From positions 15,596 to 79,595 of the forward strand of contig JBEEJT010000218.1 of NCBI GenBank assembly GCA_041169085.1: a stretch of DNA of 64,000 nucleotides, given 5' to 3'. The position numbers were made by a program, and so were the translations under genes. This document shows, piece after piece, positions 1,750 to 41,583 of this stretch. Below the pieces are notes generated by a model that was not told where the DNA came from, ran no database searches, and saw only the letters and a program-made list of their open reading frames with translations. Numbering within the stretch: position 1 is the stretch's first letter; every line of letters begins with the position of its first letter. The stretch is from Pseudomonadota bacterium (GTDB taxonomy: Bacteria; Pseudomonadota; Gammaproteobacteria; Burkholderiales; Burkholderiaceae_C).

Positions 1750-3465
1750 TCAGGCGGGCCAGGCCGATGGCGCAGTCACGGGTGGTGTCTGGCTGGCGGC
1801 GCTGGCGGGGTCGGTGCCCCCAGCATGCCTGAGAAACGCGAGCGAAGCGAGGGTGCTGGCATCGGTGTGCTCGGGCATGTCTGCGCCTTGCGACAGGTGG
1901 GCCAGCACGCCGTTGGCCACGGTCTTGCCCAGCTCCACGCCCCATTGGTCGAAGGCCAGCGTTTGCCAGATGGCGGCCTGGCAGAACACCTTGTGCTCGT
2001 ACAACGCCACCAGCGCGCCCAGGCTGTGCGGCGTCACGGTGTCGAGCCAGATCAGGTTGCTGGCGGTGTTGCCTTCGAAGCTGCGGTGCGGTGTGAGCCG
2101 ATCGGCCTGGGCCGGGCTCAGGCCGCTGTCGATGAGCAACTGGCGGGTGGTGGGCGCGTCGCGGCCCACCGACAGGGCTTGGGCCTGGGCCAGCATGTTG
2201 GCCTGGTTGAAGCGCTGGTGTTCGTCGGCCAGAGGCAGGCTGGCGTCGCTGCGCCGCGTGCCGATGAAGTCGATGGCCACCCGGTGGGTGCCTTGGTGCA
2301 GCAGTTGGTAATAGGCGTGCTGGCCGTCGATGCCCAGGCCGCCCCACACGATGGGGCCGGTGCCGCCCATGGCGGCTTGCACGGCGCGGCCGTCGGCATG
2401 GGTGCCTTTGCCGTTGGACTCCATGTCCATTTGCTGCAGGTAGCTGGGCAGCAGCGCGAGGTGGGCGGTGTAGCTGGTCACGAGCTGCGTGGGCGTGGCC
2501 AGGAAGTTGCGCTGCCAGATGCCCAGCAGCGCCATCAGCACCGGCAGGTTGGCGGCCAGCGGGGCCTGGGCGAAGTGGCGGTCCATGGCGTGGGCGCCTT
2601 CGAGCAGCTGCAAAAAGGCGTCGGTGCCGATGGCGATGGCCAAGGGCAGGCCGATGGCCGACCACAGCGAGTAGCGCCCGCCCACCCAGTCCCAGAAGGC
2701 CAGCGTGAGGTCGGGGTCGAAGCCCAGCGCCAAGGCGGTGTCGGGGGCCGACGTGATGGCGACAAACTGGCGCTGCCATTGCGCCACGCCCGCATCGGCC
2801 AGCCAGCGGCGGGCGCTGCGAGCGTTGAGCAGCGTCTCTTGCGTGGTGAAGGTCTTGGAGGCGACGACGAAGCCGGTGCGCAGCGGGTCGAGCCCTTGCA
2901 GCACGGCTTGCAACACGGCCGCGTCGGGGTTGGACACGAAGTGCACGCGCACGCCGGGCCTGGCGTCGCGCTGCAAGGCCTGGGCCGCCATGCGGGGGCC
3001 CAGGTCGGAGCCACCGATGCCGATGGCCACCACGTCGGTGATGGGCTTGCGGCTGGCGCCCAGCCAGTCGCCTGCGCGGATGCGCTCGGCCAGCGCCAGC
3101 ATGCGTTCGAGCTGGGTCTTCACGTCGCGGCTGATGGCCGCAGACCAGGTGGGGGTGTCGTCCAGCGCGCCCCGCAAGGCCACGTGCAACACGGCGCGGT
3201 CTTCGGTGGTGTTGATGCGTTCGCCCCGGAACATGGCGTCGCGCTGGGCTTCGAGGTGGCTTTGGCGGGCCAGGTCGAGCAGCGACTGCCAAACGGCGGG
3301 GGTGACGCGCTGGCGGCTGTAGTCCAGCGTCAGGCCGGCGGCCTGGGCTGTCATGCGTGCCGGGCGCTGCGGGTCTTGCAGCAGGTCGCGCAAATGGGGC
3401 ACGTGGGTGGCGGCGAGGGCCAGGGCATGCCAGGCGGGCAAGTGGTGGGGCAGGGCGGCGGTCAT
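1750..3465 (-). CDS. pgi: Glucose-6-phosphate isomerase
   Basis: Motifs [37 protein letters not shown]. Start set at MTAALPHH (3465), not at the ORF-track start inside eda. Confidence 0.95.
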
Positions 3466-3601
3466 GGTGTCGGCGATGAAGGGCCTGGCCCGCTTCGTGG
3501 GCGGGCCATGGCGCAGGAGGGGAACCGGGCCGGGTCTCGGCCGCGGTGAACCCGGGGCAGGCGTCAGGGTGATGACGCCTGGGCCCCGTCGTGGGCGTGA
3601 C

Positions 3602-4243
3602 TCAGCGGGCCATGGCGGCCAGCTTGTCGGTGGCGCGCTGGGCCACGCTGGTGATGTGGTCCCAGCGGCCCGCCTCGATGTCGGCCAGCGGGGCCAGCCA
3701 GGAGCCACCCACCACCGCCACGTTGCGCTCGGCCAGCAGCGTGGTGAAGTTGTCTTCGCTCACGCCCCCTGTGGGGCAAAAGCGCACGTCGGGGATGGGC
3801 GAGGCCAGCGCCTTGAGCATGCCCTGGCCACCCGCCTGTTGAGCGGGGAAGAGCTTCATGAGCTTGAAGCCCCGGTCGCGGCAGCCCATCACTTCGCTGG
3901 GCGTCATCACGCCGGGCACGAAGGGCAGGCCCAGCTTCACCACTTCGTCGAGCAGCGAAGCCGTGTGGCCGGGAGACAGGCCAAAGCGGGCGCCAGCCTT
4001 CATCACGCGCTCGACGTCGGCGGCTTGCAGCAAGGTGCCAGCGCCCAGGGCCATTTCGGGCACTTCAGCGGCCACGTTGGCGATCGCGTCGAGCGCGCAA
4101 GGGTGGCGCAGCGTGATCTCGATGACGTCGATGCCGCCGGCCAGCAGGGCGCGGGCCAGGGGCACGGCCTGGTCGGCATGGCTGAGCGCCACCACGGGCA
4201 CCACGCGGGTCTGGAATGGGGGCAAGGGAGCTGGGGTGGTCAT
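3602..4243 (-). CDS. eda: KDPG/KHG aldolase
   Basis: Motifs IEITLR, GAGT, KLFPA, FCPTGGV; directly downstream of edd; start MTTPAP. Confidence 0.95.
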   Translation of the reverse strand: MTTPAPLPPFQTRVVPVVALSHADQAVPLARALLAGGIDVIEITLRHPCALDAIANVAAEVPEMALGAGTLLQAADVERVMKAGARFGLSPGHTASLLDEVVKLGLPFVPGVMTPSEVMGCRDRGFKLMKLFPAQQAGGQGMLKALASPIPDVRFCPTGGVSEDNFTTLLAERNVAVVGGSWLAPLADIEAGRWDHITSVAQRATDKLAAMAR

Positions 4244-4263
4244 GGTGTGTGGGGGGCGAGGGT

Positions 4264-6135
<1,872 letters not shown>

Positions 6136-30614: not shown

Positions 30615-32093
30615 TCAGGCGGCCTTGCGCTGAGCGGCCTGCACGCTGCCGGCCTTGGTGAAGGCCATCACGCCGTCTTCCAGCTTGCCGTTGTGCAGCT
30701 GCTCGCGGTCCATGGCGTAGTTCTGGTAGAGCTTCCAGGGGGCGCGGTCGGCGCCCTTGGGCAGCTCGTGGGCCACGCGGGCCACGTAGCCCGAAGTCAT
30801 GTCCAGCAGCGGGGCTTCCTTCACGTCGGGCGTGCGGATGGGCTGGGCGATCTGGTTGCCGGACTTGTCCATGTGCTTGAGCATGCGGCACAGGTATTCG
30901 GCGATCAGGTCGGCCTTCAGCGTCCACGAAGCGTTGGTGTAGCCCAGCGTGTTCGTGAAGTTGGGGATGTCGTTGAACATCAGGCCCTTGTACGAGATGT
31001 GGTTGGCGATGTTGAGCGCCTGGCCGTCCTTGCTCAGCTGCATGCCGCCGAACATCTGCAATTGCAGGCCGGTGGCGGTCACGATGATGTCGGCTTCCAG
31101 CGTCTGGCCCGACTTCAGCTGGATGCCCTTGTCCACGAAGCGGTCGATGTGGTCGGTCACCACAGAAGCCTTGCCACGGCGCAGGGCTTTGAACAGGTCG
31201 CCATTGGGCACGGCGCACAGGCGCTGGTCCCAGGGGTTGTACGGCGGCGTGAAGTGCTTCATGTCGAAGTCCGGGCCGACCTGCACCTTCACTTGCTTGA
31301 GCAGCAGCTTGCGCATGAAGTTGGGGTACTTGCGCGACAGCTTGAAGATGCCCTGGGTGATGAAATTGTTGCGGGCTCGGCTGATGTTGTAGACCGTCAT
31401 CTCCGGCAGGAACTTCAGCAGGAAGCGCACCATCGGGTCGAACTGAGGCACCGAGATCACGTAGCTGGGCGTGCGCTGCAGCATGGTCACGTGGCCGGCC
31501 TTGTCGGTCATCGAGGGGATCAGGGTGATGGCCGTGGCGCCCGAGCCGATCACGACCACGCGCTTGCCGCTGTAGTCGAGGTTCTCAGGCCAGAATTGCG
31601 GGTGAATCAGCTGACCCTTGAAGGTGTCGAGGCCGGGGAAGTCGGGCGTGAAGCCTTGCTCGTAGTTGTAGTAGCCCGAGCACATGTGCAGCCAGTTGCA
31701 GGTCAGCTGCGTGGTTTCGCCGCTCTTCTTCTGGCAGGTCACCGTCCAGCGGGCGGTGGCGCTGTCCCAATCGGCCTTGACGACCTTGTGGCCGTAGCGC
31801 ACCTTGCTGTCGAAGCCGCCGTCACGGGCCACTTCCTTGATGTAGTTGCGGATGCGGCCGCCGTCGGCGATCACCTGCTTTTCGGTCCAGGGCTTGAAGT
31901 TGTAGCCCAGGGTGTACATGTCCGAGTCGGAACGGATGCCGGGGTAGCGGAACAGGTCCCAGGTGCCGCCCATCGTGTCGCGACCTTCCAGGATGGCGAA
32001 GGTCTTCTCGGGGCAGTTCTTGCGCAGGTGGTGCGCAGCGCCAATGCCGGACAGGCCAGCGCCCACGATCAGGACATCAAAATGTTCGGACAT
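30615..32093 (-). CDS. FAD/NAD(P)H-dependent monooxygenase (EthA-like Baeyer-Villiger type)
   Basis: GAGLSG, GGTWDLFRYPGIRSDSD, BVMO fingerprint FKGQLIHPQFWP, GSGATA, ATGL; start MSEHFDV. Confidence 0.9.
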   Translation of the reverse strand: MSEHFDVLIVGAGLSGIGAAHHLRKNCPEKTFAILEGRDTMGGTWDLFRYPGIRSDSDMYTLGYNFKPWTEKQVIADGGRIRNYIKEVARDGGFDSKVRYGHKVVKADWDSATARWTVTCQKKSGETTQLTCNWLHMCSGYYNYEQGFTPDFPGLDTFKGQLIHPQFWPENLDYSGKRVVVIGSGATAITLIPSMTDKAGHVTMLQRTPSYVISVPQFDPMVRFLLKFLPEMTVYNISRARNNFITQGIFKLSRKYPNFMRKLLLKQVKVQVGPDFDMKHFTPPYNPWDQRLCAVPNGDLFKALRRGKASVVTDHIDRFVDKGIQLKSGQTLEADIIVTATGLQLQMFGGMQLSKDGQALNIANHISYKGLMFNDIPNFTNTLGYTNASWTLKADLIAEYLCRMLKHMDKSGNQIAQPIRTPDVKEAPLLDMTSGYVARVAHELPKGADRAPWKLYQNYAMDREQLHNGKLEDGVMAFTKAGSVQAAQRKAA

Positions 32094-32354
32094 GCCAAGG
32101 TCTCCAGGTCTCAACCCGTCGTGCGGGCTTTTGGGTCTGATTCGCGACAAACCCGTTGAAAGAATGGGCGGACTGTACAACTGAAAACGATCATTGTCAA
32201 AATCGTTTCGTGGCGATTGTGCTAGCGCCGATCCCGTGGACTGGATGATGCGCGGCCCAGGCGACCCACAACGGGAGCTTGCACGACAGCATGGGAAGGG
32301 CGGCCGACAGCACCCCGACATGCGGGCCCCAAAAATTCACGCTTTCCATGGGGA

Positions 32355-34104: not shown

Positions 34105-34171
34105 TGAAAACGCCACGCGGGCCTGGTGGCCGGCGTGGCGATGCCGGGGCTGTGAGCCCAGGTTCTCAATG

Positions 34172-34198
34172 GGGGGCGCGCAGGCGCCCCCTTGTCGT
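34172..34198. terminator. GC-rich hairpin between convergent gpmA and the tail-collar gene
   Basis: GGGGGCGC-GCAG-GCGCCCCC followed by TTGTCGTT. Confidence 0.55.
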
Positions 34199-34819
34199 TC
34201 ACGGGCGCGAAGGGAAGAGGCCCGTGACCGCGATGCAGGCGGTCATGCCCAGGTAAGGGTTGCGGATGTCCAGGGGTTGGCCGCCGCCGGCCGAGCCCAT
34301 CGCGATGGCCGAGCTGCTCATGTTGTCGGTGGCCGCGCCGGTGCTGAAGTTGCTGGAGCGCGCCAGTTTGGCCGGCACGGCGCCAGCCGGGCTGTCGCTG
34401 TTGCCTGCCGCAGCGGTGCCCTTGAGTTGCGCCGTGTGGGTGTGGGCGGGCATTTGGTTGACCTGGATGTTGACCTGGGTCTGGCCGCCAGTCTGGCCCA
34501 AGGTGACCGCGAGCGCCCCCGGGCGTTGGCCAGTGCCCACTGCAACGCGGCCGCGCAAATCGGGCAAAGCGAACGATTGCACCCCGTTGCCGCCATAGGT
34601 TGTGCCGAGAAGCGCATACACGGCTTGGTACTGATAGATGGACAGTTCGCGGCCGTCTGCAGGCAAGTATCCCTGAGGGCAGAAATTGGCTGCGGTGTAG
34701 CACACCGAGCCGATGTAGGGCTCTGCGGTGCACGTGGCGTGAGCCGGGGCGCTCAACAGGGCGCAAGCGGCGATGCCAGCATGAAGGGCGATGCGCGCCC
34801 GGGTGCTCGAAAGGGTCAT
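34199..34819 (-). CDS. Phage tail-collar-domain (microcystin-dependent-protein-like) protein with Sec signal peptide
   Basis: Leader ending SAPAHA; EPYIGSV...PQGYLPADGRELSI...VYALLGTTYGGNGVQSFALPDLRGRVAVG; QMPAHTH; C-terminal PYLGMTACIAVTGLFPSR. Confidence 0.85.
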   Translation of the reverse strand: MTLSSTRARIALHAGIAACALLSAPAHATCTAEPYIGSVCYTAANFCPQGYLPADGRELSIYQYQAVYALLGTTYGGNGVQSFALPDLRGRVAVGTGQRPGALAVTLGQTGGQTQVNIQVNQMPAHTHTAQLKGTAAAGNSDSPAGAVPAKLARSSNFSTGAATDNMSSSAIAMGSAGGGQPLDIRNPYLGMTACIAVTGLFPSRP

Positions 34820-34850
34820 GGGGATTCCTGCTGAAGTGGATGGTTAGGGC

Positions 34851-35675
34851 TCAGGTGCGGCGGCGCATCAGGGCCAGAGTGAACAGGCCAGACAAGGCCA
34901 GCGTGAGGGTGGAGGGCAAGGGCACCGTGCTGGTGATGGGGGGGATGACCGGGGGCTGCAAGATCACGCCGTTGACGGCGATGATGTCGATCACCAGCTG
35001 CGCCTGGATGTCGTTGGACAAATTGCCCGCGGCATACAGGCCGCCCCAGGTGCGCTGAAGCGCCGTGAAACTGGTTTGCTGGCCAGGGGCGAGCTGCACG
35101 GCGAAGGCGTTCCCTTCGCTGGCCACGTTCATGTTGTTGCCAGGGCCGGTGTTGACCGTGTCCACGCGATGGTCGGAGAACAACAGTTCGTTGTTGGCGG
35201 CGTCTCGCACCGAGATGTCGGCGATCCCGTAGGCGTCGGCACCTGTGGCGGTCACCACGTTGTTGATCAAGCCATTGAAGACGATCGCGTAGGTGTTGCT
35301 GCTCGACAGGTTGCTCAGGTTGAAGGCGTAGTCGACGAAGACGCCGCGCCCCTCGGCTGTGGCTTGCGTTGCCGACAGCGTCAGGCGGGCGCCCAGGCCA
35401 TCGCCTGAGCTCAGCAGGTGGTTGCTGAGGCTGGCCAATTGCCAGGTGGCTGGGTCGCCCGAAAAGCTGATGCTGCTGATGCTGCCGCCGCTGGTCAGAG
35501 ACAAAGTGGCCGATTGGCTGGCGCCACCGGTCGGGGCATAGGCGTTGGCGGTGTCGATGCTCACCGAGCCTGTGACTTTGAGGTCGGCCGGCAGGGCCAC
35601 GGTGCCAGTCGCCCAAGCGGGGACGCTCAAAGCCAGGGCGGCCAGAGCGGTGAGTTGCCTCGCTGAAATCGTCAT
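34851..35675 (-). CDS. Exosortase-type surface protein with VPLPS-CTERM (PEP-CTERM variant) tail
   Basis: Signal peptide (SVPAWA), Ser/Thr/Asn-rich body, C-terminal VPLPS-TLTLALSGLFTLALM-RRRT. Confidence 0.8.
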   Translation of the reverse strand: MTISARQLTALAALALSVPAWATGTVALPADLKVTGSVSIDTANAYAPTGGASQSATLSLTSGGSISSISFSGDPATWQLASLSNHLLSSGDGLGARLTLSATQATAEGRGVFVDYAFNLSNLSSSNTYAIVFNGLINNVVTATGADAYGIADISVRDAANNELLFSDHRVDTVNTGPGNNMNVASEGNAFAVQLAPGQQTSFTALQRTWGGLYAAGNLSNDIQAQLVIDIIAVNGVILQPPVIPPITSTVPLPSTLTLALSGLFTLALMRRRT

Positions 35676-35747
35676 GTGGTGTCCTGTTGCGTGATGTGCA
35701 GTTTGGCGCGACTGTATGGTCTCCAGCCTGCCGGCACAAGTTGCAAG

Positions 35748-36746
35748 CTAGGGGAGACCCCGCAACTGGATGCCCAATGGGCAATGGTCGGACAAGAGCT
35801 TGCCCTGTTCGCGCAAGCTGTAGGCCACGCGCATGAAGGCGGTGCGCCGACTTTGCGCTTTGAGCTTGTCGCTGATCAGCACGTCGTCGATGTAGGCGTT
35901 GAAATGGTCATCGGTGTCGCACGGCACATAGGGTTCTCCTTCGGTCGCACGGTGCAACACGGCACCTGTGGGCACGCCATCGCTCCACGCCTTGAACATG
36001 GCCAAGGGCGCCGACTCATCGGAGCCCTCAGGCAGTCGGGCATCCTTGTCGAGGTGGCGGTTGAAGTCACCCATCACGACAAAGGCGACGCCCTCGCGCG
36101 CTCGTGCATCGATCCAGTGCTCCACCACAGGGACCTGCTCTCGCAGCTTGCCGCAGGGCTTGAATGCCCGATCGAGCTGACCGTTGAAACAGCCGCTTTT
36201 CATGTGCACTGCCAGCAGGCGCACGGCTTGAGGGGTGCCCGGCCACAAAGTGATGTCGGCACCGGCGCGGCTGCGCCCATCGGCATCGAGCTCGGCCAAT
36301 TCCGGGTTGCACAGGTAAGGGATGCCATCGCGGATGGCGAAGCCCACTTTTTGTGGATGGGCCCGCCGGATGAAGCAATCGGTCATCCAGCCTTTGCGGA
36401 AAACCAGGTCGGCTGCGGCGGGGCCGTCGACTTCTTGCAGCGCCACCACATCGGCCTGGAACTCGGTGAGCAGCCGCTGGGCCGTGCGGGCCAGCGCATC
36501 CAGGTCAGCGGCGGTGCGTTGGGGGGGCTGTTCGCGCCCTGGGGTGCAGGGCAGTGCGTGTTCGCTGGAGGGCGGCTGCTGTGCCTTGCACTGCGGCCGC
36601 ATGGCCCGATCGGCCTCGGGCGTGATGAGCCACGCCATGTTCCACGTCATCAGGGTGAACGTGGGGCCACGCGGTGCCGCCTGTGCCCTGGTGGCGCCGA
36701 TCGCCCAGGCCCACAGTGCGATGCACAACAAGAACCTGGGCTTCAT
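35748..36746 (-). CDS. Secreted endonuclease/exonuclease/phosphatase (EEP) family protein
   Basis: Signal peptide; TWNMAW, ALQEVDG, VHMKSG, MGDFNR, IDDVL, SDHCP. Confidence 0.88.
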   Translation of the reverse strand: MKPRFLLCIALWAWAIGATRAQAAPRGPTFTLMTWNMAWLITPEADRAMRPQCKAQQPPSSEHALPCTPGREQPPQRTAADLDALARTAQRLLTEFQADVVALQEVDGPAAADLVFRKGWMTDCFIRRAHPQKVGFAIRDGIPYLCNPELAELDADGRSRAGADITLWPGTPQAVRLLAVHMKSGCFNGQLDRAFKPCGKLREQVPVVEHWIDARAREGVAFVVMGDFNRHLDKDARLPEGSDESAPLAMFKAWSDGVPTGAVLHRATEGEPYVPCDTDDHFNAYIDDVLISDKLKAQSRRTAFMRVAYSLREQGKLLSDHCPLGIQLRGLP

Positions 36747-37680: not shown

Positions 37681-39486
37681 TCAGGGATAGAAGATGTCGG
37701 CGGTGTAGCCCGCCGGTTGCAGCTTGGCGATTTTGAGGCGCCACTGCAAGGTGGTGCTGCGCTGGGCCGGGGCGGCTTCAGGCAGTGGCAGGCCGGGGCC
37801 TGCTTGGGGTTCAGCGCCGTCTTGCCAGGTGGCGTCTTGCGGCTTGAACACGTTGCGGATGATGACGGCACCGCTGAGGTCGGTGAGCGACAGGTCGATG
37901 TGGGGCCACGCCAGCCCGATGGGGGCCTTGTTTTGCAAGACCACCGTGAGGCGGTAGACGTCGGGGCCTTCGGACGTGGCGCGCACGAAACTCAGGCTGT
38001 CGACCTGCAGGTCTTCGATGCGCAGCGGCGGCTGGATGGTGCAGCCAACCAGACGGCACCATTGCGCCAGTTGGGGGCGCAGCGGCGGGTGGTGTGCCGC
38101 GATCAGGTCGCGGAACTGGTGAGTCATCTGCGCACCCAGCAAAGCGAGCAGCATCACGGCCAGCAGCCCCAACGCGGCGCGCATGGCCGGGTGGCGCCAG
38201 CGGGCTTGAGCCTGGGCTTGTTGCACGAAGCCTGGGGTCGCTTCAGCCGCGGGGGCGGCCTTGCGGCGCAGCGCGCTGCCTTTGGCCGGCGGCTCAGCTG
38301 CAGGCTCGGCGGCAGGTGGCTCCGCGGCGGGGGCCTCTGGCGTGGCCTGGAGGTGGGCGGCGTCTTCTTCGAAGCGAGAGGGGATGGTGGACGGCTCGTC
38401 TTCCGTGGCTTCGGGCGTGCCCGGGGCGGGCTCGGCCAGCACGGTGATCGCGGGGGCGGCGGCCGGGGCTGGCGCGGCAGAGAGGTCCTCTTCGGCGTCC
38501 AGCAGCCAGTCGTCGGGCACTTCCGCGTCGGCGAAATCGGGGGAGTCGGTCGGGCGGCGGGCGGCGGCCGGCCGGTCGCGCCGGGTGGAAGGCAGCAGGT
38601 AGCGGGAGTCCAGCGCGTCTGATTCTTCGGTGCTGGGCACCAGGTCGTAGCGGCTGGGGCTGGACCAGTCGTCGCCGCCGCTGTCAGGCGGGGGCGCGCT
38701 GTCTGAAACGGTGAGGCCCGCGAGCTGGAAGTCGCCAGCAGGGCCTGCGGCGGCCGGTGCGGCCCGGTGGTCGGGTTCGGGCGCAGGCTGAGGCGAGCGG
38801 GCTTCGGCCGGGTCCGAGCCCATGGGCGACAGGCGCAGCGACAGCGGTGCGCTCATGCCTTCGAGCTCAGGGGGCGCCGAGGGGTCGGTGAGGTCGGCCG
38901 TCTGTCGGGGGATGAGGTCGACGGCGGTGTCGAGTTCGATGTCGTCGAGGCCCGGCGTGCGTGGCGCGGCATCGGCTGGCGCCGGTGGGTCGGCGGGGTC
39001 GGCGGGGTCGGCGGGGTCGGCGGGGTCGGCGGGCGCCTCGGGCACCACGGTGTCGAGGTCGAAGTCGGTGGTGGCGGGCACGGGGGCCAGCCAGGATCGG
39101 GTCTGCGCAGGGGCGGGTTGGGGCCCGATGCGCGGCCCCGCGGGGGCGGCGGCGACCGGCTCAGGCGGTGCGGTGTCGTCGAGTTCGCTTTGCGGCAAGG
39201 TGGCCGGCCACTCCGAGGGGGGCTGGCTGGGCGGGTTGTCGCGCTCGTCGGCGTCGGCCGTGGTGACCTCGTCGGCAGGTTGCGGCTGGGCAACGGCCTG
39301 GCTCTGTTCGGGTGCGGGGGCCTGGCGCGGTGGCGGCGGCTCCCTGTCGAGGTCAAACAGGGTGGGCAGGGCGTGGAAAACCTCGTTGCAACGGCCACAG
39401 CGCACCCAGCCCTCGGAGACCTTCAATTGGTCTTCGACGACCTTGAAGATCGTGCCGCAATGGGTGCAACGGGTGGCCAGGCTCAT
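37681..39486 (-). CDS. Zinc-ribbon (MJ0042-type) + DUF3426 membrane protein
   Basis: TRCTHCGTIFKVVEDQLKVSEGWVRCGRCNEVF, long acidic Pro/Ala linker, TM helix, C-terminal LQNKA..WPHIDLSLTD...YTADIFYP. Confidence 0.85.
   Translation of the reverse strand: MSLATRCTHCGTIFKVVEDQLKVSEGWVRCGRCNEVFHALPTLFDLDREPPPPRQAPAPEQSQAVAQPQPADEVTTADADERDNPPSQPPSEWPATLPQSELDDTAPPEPVAAAPAGPRIGPQPAPAQTRSWLAPVPATTDFDLDTVVPEAPADPADPADPADPADPPAPADAAPRTPGLDDIELDTAVDLIPRQTADLTDPSAPPELEGMSAPLSLRLSPMGSDPAEARSPQPAPEPDHRAAPAAAGPAGDFQLAGLTVSDSAPPPDSGGDDWSSPSRYDLVPSTEESDALDSRYLLPSTRRDRPAAARRPTDSPDFADAEVPDDWLLDAEEDLSAAPAPAAAPAITVLAEPAPGTPEATEDEPSTIPSRFEEDAAHLQATPEAPAAEPPAAEPAAEPPAKGSALRRKAAPAAEATPGFVQQAQAQARWRHPAMRAALGLLAVMLLALLGAQMTHQFRDLIAAHHPPLRPQLAQWCRLVGCTIQPPLRIEDLQVDSLSFVRATSEGPDVYRLTVVLQNKAPIGLAWPHIDLSLTDLSGAVIIRNVFKPQDATWQDGAEPQAGPGLPLPEAAPAQRSTTLQWRLKIAKLQPAGYTADIFYP
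38987..39031. repeat. 9-bp tandem repeat (GGGTCGGCG)x5 encoding Pro-Ala-Asp repeats
   Basis: Five perfect copies counted directly. Confidence 0.9.
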
Positions 39487-39616: not shown

Positions 39617-40501
39617 TCAGAAGCTGCCCTTGCTGCCGAAGTTCGACAAGTCGGTGCCCTGGGCACGGAAGAAGGTGCCGTAGCGTTCGTCTTCGTCAAC
39701 GAAGCGCTTGGCCCAGGCCAGGGCGTATTTGGCCACGTGGGCTTGCGAGCTGGCGCTGGCGGTCGTCCACAGCGACAGGTGGTTGAAGCCGGCCAGTTCG
39801 ACCCACACGGCGGGCGTGCTGCCGTCCAGGGCCTGGAAGAAGGGCTTGGACCAGCTGCTGGCCAGGCCATCGTTCTGGGCGGTGAGCACCAGCGTGGGGG
39901 TCTTGGTGGTGGTGGCCAGGCTCTTGTAGCTGGTGCCGGGCTCGCCCGCCATCAGGCCCACGAGCGCCTTGAGTTCGGGGTGGGTGGCGGCGGCGTAGAA
40001 GGTGCCGGCGCCGCCAGCCGAGTGGCCCATGAAGGCCACGCGGGTCTCGTCGACCTGGCCAGCCCAGGCCACGGCCTGCACCTTGTTCTGGGCCTTCATG
40101 GCGTCCATCACGGCCACCAGTTGCGTGGCCCGGGCCTTGGGCATGTCCAGCAGCGATTTGGTTTGCACCACGGCCACCACAAAGCCATGCGAGGCGATGC
40201 GCTCGGCGATGCCGGCATACAGGCCGGCCGAGCTCACGAAGCCCGGGCACAGCACCACCAGGCCAAAGGTGCCCTGGCTGCGGTCGGTGGGGTGGTAAAC
40301 GGTGGTGCCATTGCCGTAAGCCGACGCGTTGACCAGCGTGGCCTTGGCGGTGGCGAACGGGCCGGCGGCCTCGATGCTGGCCACGGTGGGGGCCGGGCCT
40401 TTGGCGTAGCCGGCGGCGAAGGCCGACGACATGGCGGCGGCGCCGAGGGTGAGGCCGGCGATCAGGCGGCGGACGGAAGTGGAGGGGGAAGCGGTGCGCA
40501 T
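39617..40501 (-). CDS. Secreted PETase/cutinase-like alpha/beta hydrolase (294 aa)
   Basis: GGAG RBS; signal peptide; YAKGPAPTVASIEAAGPF, TVYHPT, CPGF, RIASHGFVV, MGHSAGG, QNDGLA, GFNH, WAKRFVDEDERYGTF; triad S161/D211/H241. Confidence 0.85.
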   Translation of the reverse strand: MRTASPSTSVRRLIAGLTLGAAAMSSAFAAGYAKGPAPTVASIEAAGPFATAKATLVNASAYGNGTTVYHPTDRSQGTFGLVVLCPGFVSSAGLYAGIAERIASHGFVVAVVQTKSLLDMPKARATQLVAVMDAMKAQNKVQAVAWAGQVDETRVAFMGHSAGGAGTFYAAATHPELKALVGLMAGEPGTSYKSLATTTKTPTLVLTAQNDGLASSWSKPFFQALDGSTPAVWVELAGFNHLSLWTTASASSQAHVAKYALAWAKRFVDEDERYGTFFRAQGTDLSNFGSKGSF

Positions 40502-40514
40502 GGGGGCTCCTGGC

Positions 40515-40539
40515 GAATTGTTCTGAACATGAACAATTC
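40515..40539. promoter_or_regulatory. Perfect inverted repeat 14-38 bp upstream of the hydrolase start (candidate operator)
   Basis: GAATTGTTC-tgaacat-GAACAATTC. Confidence 0.6.
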
Positions 40540-40568
40540 TTCCGACGCGCGGCGCCCGCAACCACGGG

Positions 40569-40599
40569 AAAAGCCCGGGGCGGTTTCCCGACCCGGGCT
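40569..40599 (-). terminator. Intrinsic terminator after prmA
   Basis: AGCCCGGG...CCCGGGCT stem followed on the minus strand by TTT. Confidence 0.6.
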
Positions 40600-40644
40600 G
40601 GCGTTCGCTTCGAAGCGTGTGCGCCTCAGGCGAGGCGGGATGCA

Positions 40645-41583
40645 TCAAACCGGCTTGCGCGCGGTCATCAGGATCCAACCGTCTTCCGAGTTGCTGACCT
40701 GCAGTTGCAGGCCCACTTCGGCGTAGGCGTCTTTGAGCTCTTGTTCCTGGCGGGCCAGGATGCCGGCCAGCACCAGGTGGCCACCGGGGGCCACGTGGCC
40801 GGCCAGCAGCGGCGCCAGCATCTTCAGCGGCGTGGCCAGGATGTTGGCCAGCACCAGCGGGTAGGCGCCTTGGGCTTCGCCCACCAAGTCGGGCAGGCCG
40901 GCCCGAATGGGCAATTTGCCGTCGGGGTCCTTCAGGTGGGCCAGGTTGGCTTCGGCGTTGGCGTTGGTGGCATCCACCGCGGCCGGGTCGATGTCGACCG
41001 CGTCGATCAGGCCCGAACCAAACAACGCGGCCCCGATGGCCAGGATGCCGGAGCCGCAACCGTAATCCAGCACGGGTTGGCCCTGGAAGGCTTCAGGGTG
41101 TTGGGCCGTCCACTTCAGGCACATGCGGGTGGTGGGGTGGGTGCCCGTTCCAAAGGCCAGGCCCGGGTCCAGGCGCATCACGGTCTGGGCTGCCGCCGGC
41201 ACCTCGTGCCACGTGGGCACGATGAAGAAGGTGTCGGTGATGGGCACAGGCTTGAACTGCGACTGCGTCAGGCGCACCCAATCTTGTTCGTCCACGGGCT
41301 GGATGCCCTGAACGTGGACGTCTGCGGCCCAGTCCTGGGCCAACAAGAGCGTGGCCGCTTCCAGCGCTTCCGCTTCGGTCGGGAACAAGCTCTTGATGGT
41401 GGAGCGCTGCCAGGCTTCGCGCGCCACCGGCATGCCCGGTTCGCCCCACAGGGCTTCTTCGTGTTCCGTGTCGGCATCGGCGTCTTCGACGGACACGGAC
41501 AAGGCGTCGACCTCCATGAGCGCGTCGCTCAAGGTTTCGACTTCGGCCTCTTTGGCCAGCAGGGTGAGTTCAAACAGGGGCAT
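40645..41583 (-). CDS. prmA: Ribosomal protein L11 methyltransferase
   Basis: DWVRLTQSQFKP, LDPGLAFGTGTHPTT, LDYGCGSGILAI, ANILA. Confidence 0.95.
   Translation of the reverse strand: MPLFELTLLAKEAEVETLSDALMEVDALSVSVEDADADTEHEEALWGEPGMPVAREAWQRSTIKSLFPTEAEALEAATLLLAQDWAADVHVQGIQPVDEQDWVRLTQSQFKPVPITDTFFIVPTWHEVPAAAQTVMRLDPGLAFGTGTHPTTRMCLKWTAQHPEAFQGQPVLDYGCGSGILAIGAALFGSGLIDAVDIDPAAVDATNANAEANLAHLKDPDGKLPIRAGLPDLVGEAQGAYPLVLANILATPLKMLAPLLAGHVAPGGHLVLAGILARQEQELKDAYAEVGLQLQVSNSEDGWILMTARKPV

Follow-up and report, generated by a model that had tools for sequence, protein, structure and literature searches.

A tail-collar protein with a secretory leader and its PEP-CTERM-like partner in a mobile two-gene cassette

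The receptor-binding tips of gp12-type phage fibres, the proteins sorted by the PEP-CTERM/exosortase system and the leaderless cellular Collar proteins of the MdpB-like type are among the closest described relatives of the locus reported here, a pair of adjacent genes, A and B, within a 64,000-nucleotide stretch of the genome of a freshwater betaproteobacterium of the Burkholderiaceae_C (the window; GenBank assembly GCA_041169085.1, contig JBEEJT010000218.1). Open reading frame (ORF) calling places both genes on the minus strand, in agreement with the positions given by an earlier reading of the DNA made without database searches (the sequence-only reading). Gene B encodes an exported tail-collar protein, and gene A, directly upstream, encodes an exported protein with a C-terminal tail of the exosortase-sorted kind. 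The two constitute a mobile, co-inherited two-gene unit, and we put at about an even chance the reading that they form an operon for a two-component binding module of the envelope or matrix, in which B docks on A. The parts, Collar and PEP-CTERM, are of known kinds; the pairing, family A, the exported form of Collar and the loss of Glu from the sorting motif are new.

34851..35675, minus strand: gene A, encoding a 274-residue exported β-sandwich protein with what is best read as a degenerate PEP-CTERM tail (from ORF calling, profile search and an AlphaFold2 (AF2) model)
34199..34819, minus strand: gene B, encoding a 206-residue Sec-exported tail-collar (gp12/MdpB-like) protein (from Pfam, AF2 and Foldseek)

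Protein B shares its Collar domain, HxH head and fold with the T4 gp12 tip (1ocy; PF07484 plus Gp10_C, PF21939), the cyanophage A-1(L) fibre (8kec) and the Pa223 fibre (9nxk). It differs from gp12-type phage fibres in lacking a fibrous shaft, in carrying a Sec leader and two co-varying Cys pairs, and in its phage-free chromosomal context. The nearest published indication that Collar can sit on a bacterial appendage comes from the PilV-Collar fusion adhesin of a shufflon locus, for which the authors hypothesise a role in binding specificity (PMC9881135). Collar is part of a bacterial surface appendage protein in that system, where it is fused to a type IV pilin and varied by DNA inversion, whereas B is a separate exported protein encoded beside an exosortase-type partner.

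Non-phage Collar genes are carried by thousands of bacteria, and a literature search found no tested function for those known as "microcystin-dependent protein" genes. The sequence-only reading had described them as usually leaderless triplets beside a GNAT and a large adhesin. Such an arrangement is real, as seen in a leaderless triplet and GNAT cassette of the same family (L165), but the partner heading that cassette is a PEP-CTERM protein, so that a giant adhesin is not the only partner. The leaderless MdpB-like proteins (COG4675), ~170 residues long, have in common with B the core, a C-terminal GIFPSR motif and, at L165, the PEP-CTERM-headed cassette. The present locus differs in having one Collar gene, with a leader and predicted disulfides, no GNAT, no small Tat/DUF partner and an unrelated CTERM partner.

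To our knowledge, few cargoes of the PEP-CTERM/exosortase system have been tested for function. Protein A shares with that system (PF07589, TIGR02595, XrtB TIGR03113) a signal peptide and a C-terminal tail composed of a PxP motif, a transmembrane (TM) helix and a basic cluster; A orthologues carry canonical tails, and the window's genome encodes XrtB, EpsI-B, EpsD and ~37 VPEP-tailed ORFs. It departs from known PEP-CTERM proteins, the floc protein PepA (NF033554) included, in its sub-threshold tail, its N-terminal domain outside the curated PEP-CTERM families and its obligate pairing with Collar. The tail of A starts with V-P-L-P, as in the VPLPA-CTERM/XrtD system (TIGR03370, TIGR04152), but A has no TIGR03370 match, both exosortases of the window's genome are XrtB-like and A orthologues have PEP tails. 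A literature search found no paper containing both "tail collar" and "PEP-CTERM". In a related genus, Aquincola, PEP-CTERM proteins act in floc formation, according to one report (PMC9850573).

Co-occurrence and mobility of the two genes

Loci encoding A were drawn from whole-genome samples at three levels (family, order and phylum), from single look-ups and from metagenome contigs. At all 18 of these loci a leader-bearing Collar gene lies directly downstream of A, on the same strand and after a gap of 3-97 bp, and A was never seen without B among the A loci examined. In the GTDB family sample (301 genomes), A is present in only six genomes, exactly those that contain the six best B matches (210-232 bits, 52-58% identity, single copy); a whole-genome search places B downstream of A in all six, on the same strand and 80-120 bp away. 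The next-best Collar matches in this sample reach at most 148 bits and belong mostly to tandem triplets. The order-level sample (401 genomes, searched with the A profile) contributed four genomes from two other families, each with a Collar gene directly downstream. A phylum-level sample of 401 genomes contributed two more, both gammaproteobacterial, its three matches (the window's genome being the third) all falling in one class. Single look-ups added a Burkholderiales metagenome-assembled genome (MAG), two Roseateles strains, a JGI contig, a Methylomonas chromosome and a metagenome contig.

Adjacency at 18 of 18 loci places the pairing of A and B beyond chance. The order of the genes stays fixed while A identity falls to ~25-30% across the loci, the genes flanking the pair change from genus to genus, and pairwise identities of A and of B are correlated (r = 0.79, Mantel p = 2e-4). 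This obligate pairing is new. It upholds the proposal of the sequence-only reading that A and B are one unit, and the survey suggested in that reading, of whether signal-peptide Collar genes are associated with CTERM genes, came out in favour of its hypothesis.

In distant lineages the unit is longer. The two gammaproteobacterial genomes from the phylum sample have the order A, B, Sel1-repeat gene, and on the metagenome contig a Collar gene comes after a distant A (profile E ~4e-39), with Sel1 and HEAT-repeat genes next in line. The Sel1-repeat protein encoded after A-B at L152 (3001-6406), L155 and L156 bears a leader, and at L152 a HEAT-repeat protein joins it; these loci are three- or four-gene modules of exported proteins.

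The association with a CTERM partner, complete at the 18 A loci, is not universal in reverse. Genes of the B clade that encode a leader and have no A were found as a triplet at L158 and as a single Erythrobacter gene at L160, indicating that B-type proteins can function without A. The L158 triplet (3378-5238) consists of three tandem leader-bearing, four-Cys Collar genes with a 129-residue Cys-containing ORF ahead of them. Its position in the tree, nested within the clade of A-paired genes, suggests that A was lost before the gene was triplicated.

Links between Collar and CTERM proteins extend beyond family A. In P0090, two Collar domains are fused to a PEP-CTERM tail (23.6 bits), and at L105, L109, L110 and L112 a PEP-CTERM family of 229-240 residues is encoded upstream of a different clade of leader-bearing Collar proteins. 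In a Caulobacterales MAG (L007, 3123-5188), a genuine VPLPA-CTERM protein (TIGR03370, 37.4 bits) is encoded upstream of a pair of leader-bearing Collar genes, at a distance of 33 bp, as an alphaproteobacterial counterpart of the A-B pairing with a different sorting system. Aligned by hhalign with the CTERM proteins that partner Collar genes at L105, L007 and L165, A matches them in the tails only, and no homology between the N-terminal domains is detected. For a background set, a B search of genome contigs returned only distant Collar genes (34-48% identity); three of these loci have leader-bearing Collar genes and one, L007, a CTERM neighbour, counts that are indicative only because a crude regular expression missed many Collar ORFs.

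These surveys bear on whether the two proteins meet at all. A and B could be matrix or surface proteins that are transferred and expressed together without contact, A being a further PEP-CTERM protein of the matrix and B a free secreted or periplasmic trimeric lectin that binds the cell's own polysaccharide, a reading we consider possible but doubtful. It would accommodate the B-type proteins that exist without A and the reported role of PEP-CTERM proteins in floc formation in a related genus (PMC9850573). At least four sequence-unrelated CTERM families adjoin Collar genes, moreover, and a shared pathway or location explains this more easily than one interface does. Arguing for contact instead are the adjacency at every one of the 18 loci, in fixed order, through deep divergence of A and changing flanks, the lack of any A without B among them, and the Collar and PEP-CTERM fusions, which suggest that Collar is physically tethered by this route.

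At the window locus, the boundaries of the unit can be drawn from sites that lack it, the upstream neighbour being a gene of the endonuclease/exonuclease/phosphatase (EEP) family.

34105..35747, minus strand: two-gene insertion, 1.64 kb from the gpmA stop to the stop of the EEP-family gene (from empty sites)

Two genomes of the same genus (G234 and G051), in which neither A nor B is found anywhere, have the EEP stop and the gpmA stop separated by ~36 bp, within flanks in the same order as in the window (DUF3426-PfkB-EEP, then GpmA-Rhod-Grx). These empty sites identify A-B as a clean 1.64-kb insertion here. With a GC content of 0.658, against 0.678 for the window, the insert shows no compositional anomaly.

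The database names of B ("phage tail protein", "tail fiber protein" or "microcystin-dependent protein") invite the view that it is a prophage tail-fibre remnant with a chance neighbour. This view is effectively refuted. No phage genes lie within ~10 kb of the pair, where the neighbours are housekeeping genes, as the sequence-only reading had also noted; the insertion measures only 1.64 kb; the signal peptide and disulfide pairs of B are incompatible with cytoplasmic virion assembly; and the pair is kept in 18 loci. It seems very unlikely, too, that the unit is a phage-defence decoy or receptor mask, in which an exported tip trimer would bind the cell's own lipopolysaccharide (LPS) or exopolysaccharide receptor, or be shed, and so compete with phages that use gp12-like tips. 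The fold of B is that of a phage receptor-binding tip, and a cassette this sporadic and mobile (six of 301 family genomes, with an empty site in the same genus) is typical of accessory defence genes; however, no defence genes lie close to the pair, and Collar proteins, which are common in cells, are not known to act in defence.

Architecture of proteins B and A

The following features of B underlie its assignment as an exported Collar protein; its signal peptide, like that of A, was assigned by eye and from conservation.

34736..34819, minus strand: signal peptide of B, residues 1-28, ending ...SAPAHA before TC (from sequence)
34544..34711, minus strand: Collar domain of B, residues 37-92 (Pfam envelope)
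34436..34444, minus strand: HxH motif of B, H126-T-H128, a putative trimer-axis metal site

Residues 37-92 of B score 79.8 bits with the Pfam Collar model (PF07484; cut-off 24), and there is a weak match to Gp10_C (17 bits). The protein begins with MTLSSTRARIALHAGIAACALLSAPAHA, which comprises a basic n-region, a hydrophobic core and an AxA cleavage site, and continues as TCTAEPYIGSV. An N-terminal extension ending in an AxA-type site precedes the conserved EPxxG start of the domain in 97 of 98 members of the B subfamily. Mature B contains four Cys; three of them (C30, C40 and C47) are close to its N-terminus and one, C195, is close to the opposite end. The leader holds one more, C19. The description in the sequence-only reading of a single tail-collar gene with a Sec leader and this set of four Cys is thus borne out.

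The four Cys vary in pairs. Of the 98 aligned members, 83 have both C30 and C40 and 13 have neither. For C47 and C195 the corresponding counts are 96 and two; one of these two lacks all four Cys, and the other retains the first pair only. A leaderless member of the subfamily, P0101, has none of the four. Two subfamily-specific disulfides, C30-C40 and C47-C195, are the simplest explanation of this pattern, and the covariation supports export of B to an oxidising compartment, in line with the Sec export proposed from the sequence. The Sec-exported, disulfide-braced form of Collar that results is new. In the family as a whole, the Cys after the cleavage site occupies position +1 or +2, and it co-varies with C40 as a pair. 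A lipoprotein assignment was considered for B and rejected, as there is no lipobox of the form [LVI][ASTVI][GAS]C and the window reads AHA and then TC.

The AF2 model of the B monomer (predicted local distance difference test, pLDDT, 86.8) retrieves in Foldseek the receptor-binding domain of T4 gp12 (1ocy), the cyanophage A-1(L) fibre (8kec) and the Pa223 fibre (9nxk), each at probability 1.00; the low TM-scores of the monomer (0.3-0.37) would suit a single chain isolated from a trimer. All 98 B sequences have both H126 and H128, and the motif aligns with the HxH of 8kec. In gp12-type tips, the HxH histidines coordinate metal on the trimer axis. Mature B starts only 3-4 residues ahead of the start of leaderless cellular homologues (M-x-x-PFIGEI). 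B is therefore a bare receptor-binding fibre tip without a shaft, with a leader in place of the initiator Met of its leaderless homologues.

Protein A is divided into a leader, a single folded domain and a tail.

35610..35675, minus strand: signal peptide of A, residues 1-22, ending ...VPAWA before TG, with Arg6, a hydrophobic core and an AxA site
34971..35588, minus strand: β-sandwich domain of A, residues ~30-235 (AF2 strands 32-234, block pLDDT 92-98)
34854..34931, minus strand: sorting tail of A, residues 249-274, STVPLPSTLTLALSGLFTLALMRRRT, with a PxP motif, a TM helix and a basic cluster

The leader, MTISARQLTALAALALSVPAWA, is followed by TG at the start of the mature part. AF2 models residues 5-22 as a helix of lower pLDDT, and all aligned A orthologues have a leader at the N-terminus. 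The model of the whole protein (pLDDT 91.9, predicted TM-score, pTM, 0.84) shows an all-β sandwich over ~30-235, a short linker and the terminal TM helix. No Pfam or NCBIfam model covers the body of A, whose only matches in the curated libraries are sub-threshold and at the level of the tail, and databases name it "hypothetical protein". A profile search of 1.8 billion representative proteins returned 388 matches at E <= 1e-3, of which 290 reach E <= 1e-10; the proteins listed are mostly ~250-320 residues long, with near full-profile coverage. Family A is thus a new protein family with no curated model, comprising ~290 representative clusters (E <= 1e-10).

A sequence-based structure search with A found no PDB relative at E <= 10, and a fold search against PDB and BFVD gave only weak β-sandwich matches (Bdellovibrio Bd1399, 8okh, TMt 0.52-0.56; birnavirus VP2), along with assorted phage proteins at TM < 0.3. 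These matches are so weak that function cannot be drawn from them. Invariant or near-invariant positions include D41, N44, D92, D115, N122, S124, D147, D172 and N175, and the many conserved Asp and Asn might suit a metal or sugar site.

A candidate surface module and its sorting tail

The favoured two-component module can be set out as a series of steps. After export, A would be retained in the inner membrane through its tail, and XrtB would cleave it and pass it to the cell surface or the exopolysaccharide matrix, a hand-over that has been proposed for other PEP-CTERM proteins. In the periplasm, an oxidising compartment, each chain of B would fold with two disulfides, C30-C40 and C47-C195, and B would trimerise, in the manner of T4 gp12, around a metal ion held by its HxH motifs. 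Because B has neither a shaft nor an anchor of its own, A would serve it as attachment or adaptor. The complex may then bind a glycan, LPS or exopolysaccharide, and so add to cell-cell or cell-matrix cohesion, as in flocs or biofilms, or to surface recognition. The docking of B on A, the surface location and the ligand are inferred.

The tail of A and the exosortases of its carriers connect the unit with a sorting system. The C-terminus of A, VPLPSTLTLALSGLFTLALMRRRT, reads as VPLPS, a TM segment and RRR, and AF2 places a helix at residues 255-273. P252, P254 and L259 are invariant in 15 A orthologues, and a tail of the form VPLPG(S/T)LPL is conserved in the clade containing the window's A. 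In other families, the A orthologues L123, L124, L126, L152 and L159 have canonical VPEP, IPEP or LPEP tails with TM and RR. Of these, L126 passes both Pfam (21.1 bits) and TIGR02595 (20.3 bits), and L152 (23.6 bits) and L159 (17.0 bits) pass TIGR02595, for which the cut-off is 16. The alternation of canonical and variant tails in one orthologous family is as expected if the same machinery reads all of them.

The middle residue of the motif is variable in this family. Over 148 members it is E in 75, L in 29, A in 13, V in 12 and I in 6, and among the tails of P0127-P0275 and the loci about half have L, A, V, I, T or S where PEP has Glu. Such frequent loss of Glu from the sorting motif is new, and it provides a natural test set for what exosortases require.

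The window's genome encodes one XrtB (TIGR03113, 315.5 bits against a cut-off of 275), accompanied by a B-type EpsI, and a second XrtB-like gene (265 bits) adjoining EpsD. The XrtD model (TIGR04152) gives 137 and 136 bits there, short of its cut-off of 400. Exosortases are present in every carrier genome checked. Presence of exosortases was also tried as a discriminator and dropped as uninformative, since carriers and non-carriers alike have 2-3. The tie to an exosortase system put forward in the sequence-only reading is supported by the canonical PEP tails of A orthologues, by XrtB, by the Collar and PEP-CTERM fusions and by the other CTERM partners of Collar genes. Its claim of a VPLPS-CTERM sorting tail holds for the sequence, VPLPS, TM and RRR being present, and does not hold for membership of a recognised VPLPA-type class. 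"VPLPS-CTERM" is a description of sequence and not a recognised class, as the tail lies below curated thresholds; the tail is best read as a degenerate PEP-CTERM in an organism with XrtB, not as a VPLPA-type signal. In all, the observation made in that reading is confirmed, and its interpretation is partly supported.

Several results weigh against a surface module assembled in this way. The tail of the window's A scores 14.4 bits against Pfam PEP-CTERM (PF07589), below the cut-off of 20.7, and has no match to TIGR02595 or TIGR03370 at E <= 0.1. Its motif reads P-L-P, with Leu where PEP has Glu, and it is the sole non-PEP tail among ~38 in the genome, so that exosortase processing of this particular A is a prediction made against a sub-threshold tail without Glu. 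No exopolysaccharide or exosortase genes adjoin the A-B pair in any locus, and no route for export of A or B across the outer membrane is evident. Mature A has no Cys with which to form a disulfide link to B, and the B-type genes of L158 and L160 manage without A.

Part of this evidence would fit a module confined to the periplasm and inner membrane, in which the VPLPS tail has ceased to be an exosortase substrate and only anchors A, and B is a periplasmic partner, perhaps in envelope sensing or polysaccharide handling. The failure of the window's tail against PF07589 and TIGR02595, its singularity in the genome, the loss of Glu in half of family A and the want of an evident outer-membrane route all lean this way. 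So does the leader-bearing Sel1-repeat protein encoded after B in distant lineages; Sel1-repeat proteins with a leader are typically periplasmic adaptors. Set against it are the conservation of PxPG(S/T)LPL, TM and RRR among VPLP-type orthologues with P252, P254 and L259 invariant, the alternation of canonical and variant tails within one orthologous family, and exosortases in all carrier genomes checked. On balance we regard confinement of the module as unlikely and retain exosortase-dependent transfer of A as the favoured route.

A broader and more tentative proposal is that A-B belongs to a general Gram-negative "socket and tip" system, in which phage-derived Collar trimers would be hung on the surface or matrix by exosortase-sorted proteins, either in trans, through A-like CTERM β-sandwich proteins, or in cis, through fusions. 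If so, A-B would be its minimal, mobile, homotrimeric version and could set cell-cell or cell-matrix recognition, as in flocculation or kin recognition, or mask receptors from phages; exosortase B would then accept P-(L/V/A/I)-P as well as P-E-P. The cassette is the smallest genetic unit to join the Collar and PEP-CTERM problems, with a single gene for an exported Collar protein, a single partner with a CTERM tail and nothing in the way of accessory enzymes. The pair occurs in cultured strains of Roseateles, Inhella, Chitinivorax and Methylomonas, which makes docking, final location, the glycan and the need for the PEP Glu directly testable.

Operon signals and neighbouring genes

The sequence-only reading had noted a 31-bp gap and a separate AGGA ribosome-binding site for B, and both are present.

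34820..34850, minus strand: A-B spacer, 31 bp, with the AGGA ribosome-binding site at 34826-34829, 6 nt ahead of the B ATG (from sequence)
34173..34190, minus strand: GC-rich hairpin GGGGCGC-ctgc-GCGCCCC, 8 nt past the B stop, without a T-run (from sequence)

A promoter scan found no promoter-like site in the spacer, and scans of the locus for sigma-70 promoters and intrinsic terminators returned nothing useful, the hairpin past the B stop not being called by the terminator scan. This hairpin is weak evidence that the operon ends 3' of B. A sigma-54 promoter upstream of A, tried because the Aquincola PEP-CTERM floc gene is RpoN-dependent, was rejected, with a best match of 6 of 12 positions over the 18 loci.

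The assembly of the window (4.28 Mb, 377 contigs) contains B as its sole Collar gene, and no GNAT gene lies close to B. Neighbours within ~10 kb encode GpsA, SecB, a flavin monooxygenase (FMO)-like oxidase, Grx, rhodanese, GpmA, a secreted EEP-family protein, PfkB, a DUF3426 protein and a PETase-like hydrolase. The EEP gene (35748-36746, minus strand), whose product has the leader MKPRFLLCIALWAWAIGATRAQA, is directly upstream of A; its retention at the site in same-genus genomes without A and B places it outside the cassette. The FMO-type gene (30615-32321, minus strand), between secB and grx, encodes a 568-residue flavin monooxygenase of the FMO/Baeyer-Villiger type. A tblastn search found no counterpart in the syntenic region of two same-genus genomes, so that it looks like a second small insertion in the housekeeping block. 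A 480-residue ORF (39617-41059, minus strand) matches Pfam PETase (PF12740, PET hydrolase-like) at 192 bits and has an internal signal-like segment ahead of the domain; the genome itself seems to fall within a Roseateles/Ideonella-type group of Burkholderiales. The zinc-ribbon and DUF3426 protein (37681-39486, minus strand) has a very long, Pro/Ala-rich middle of low complexity, including (ADP)n repeats, that is poorly conserved among same-genus genomes.

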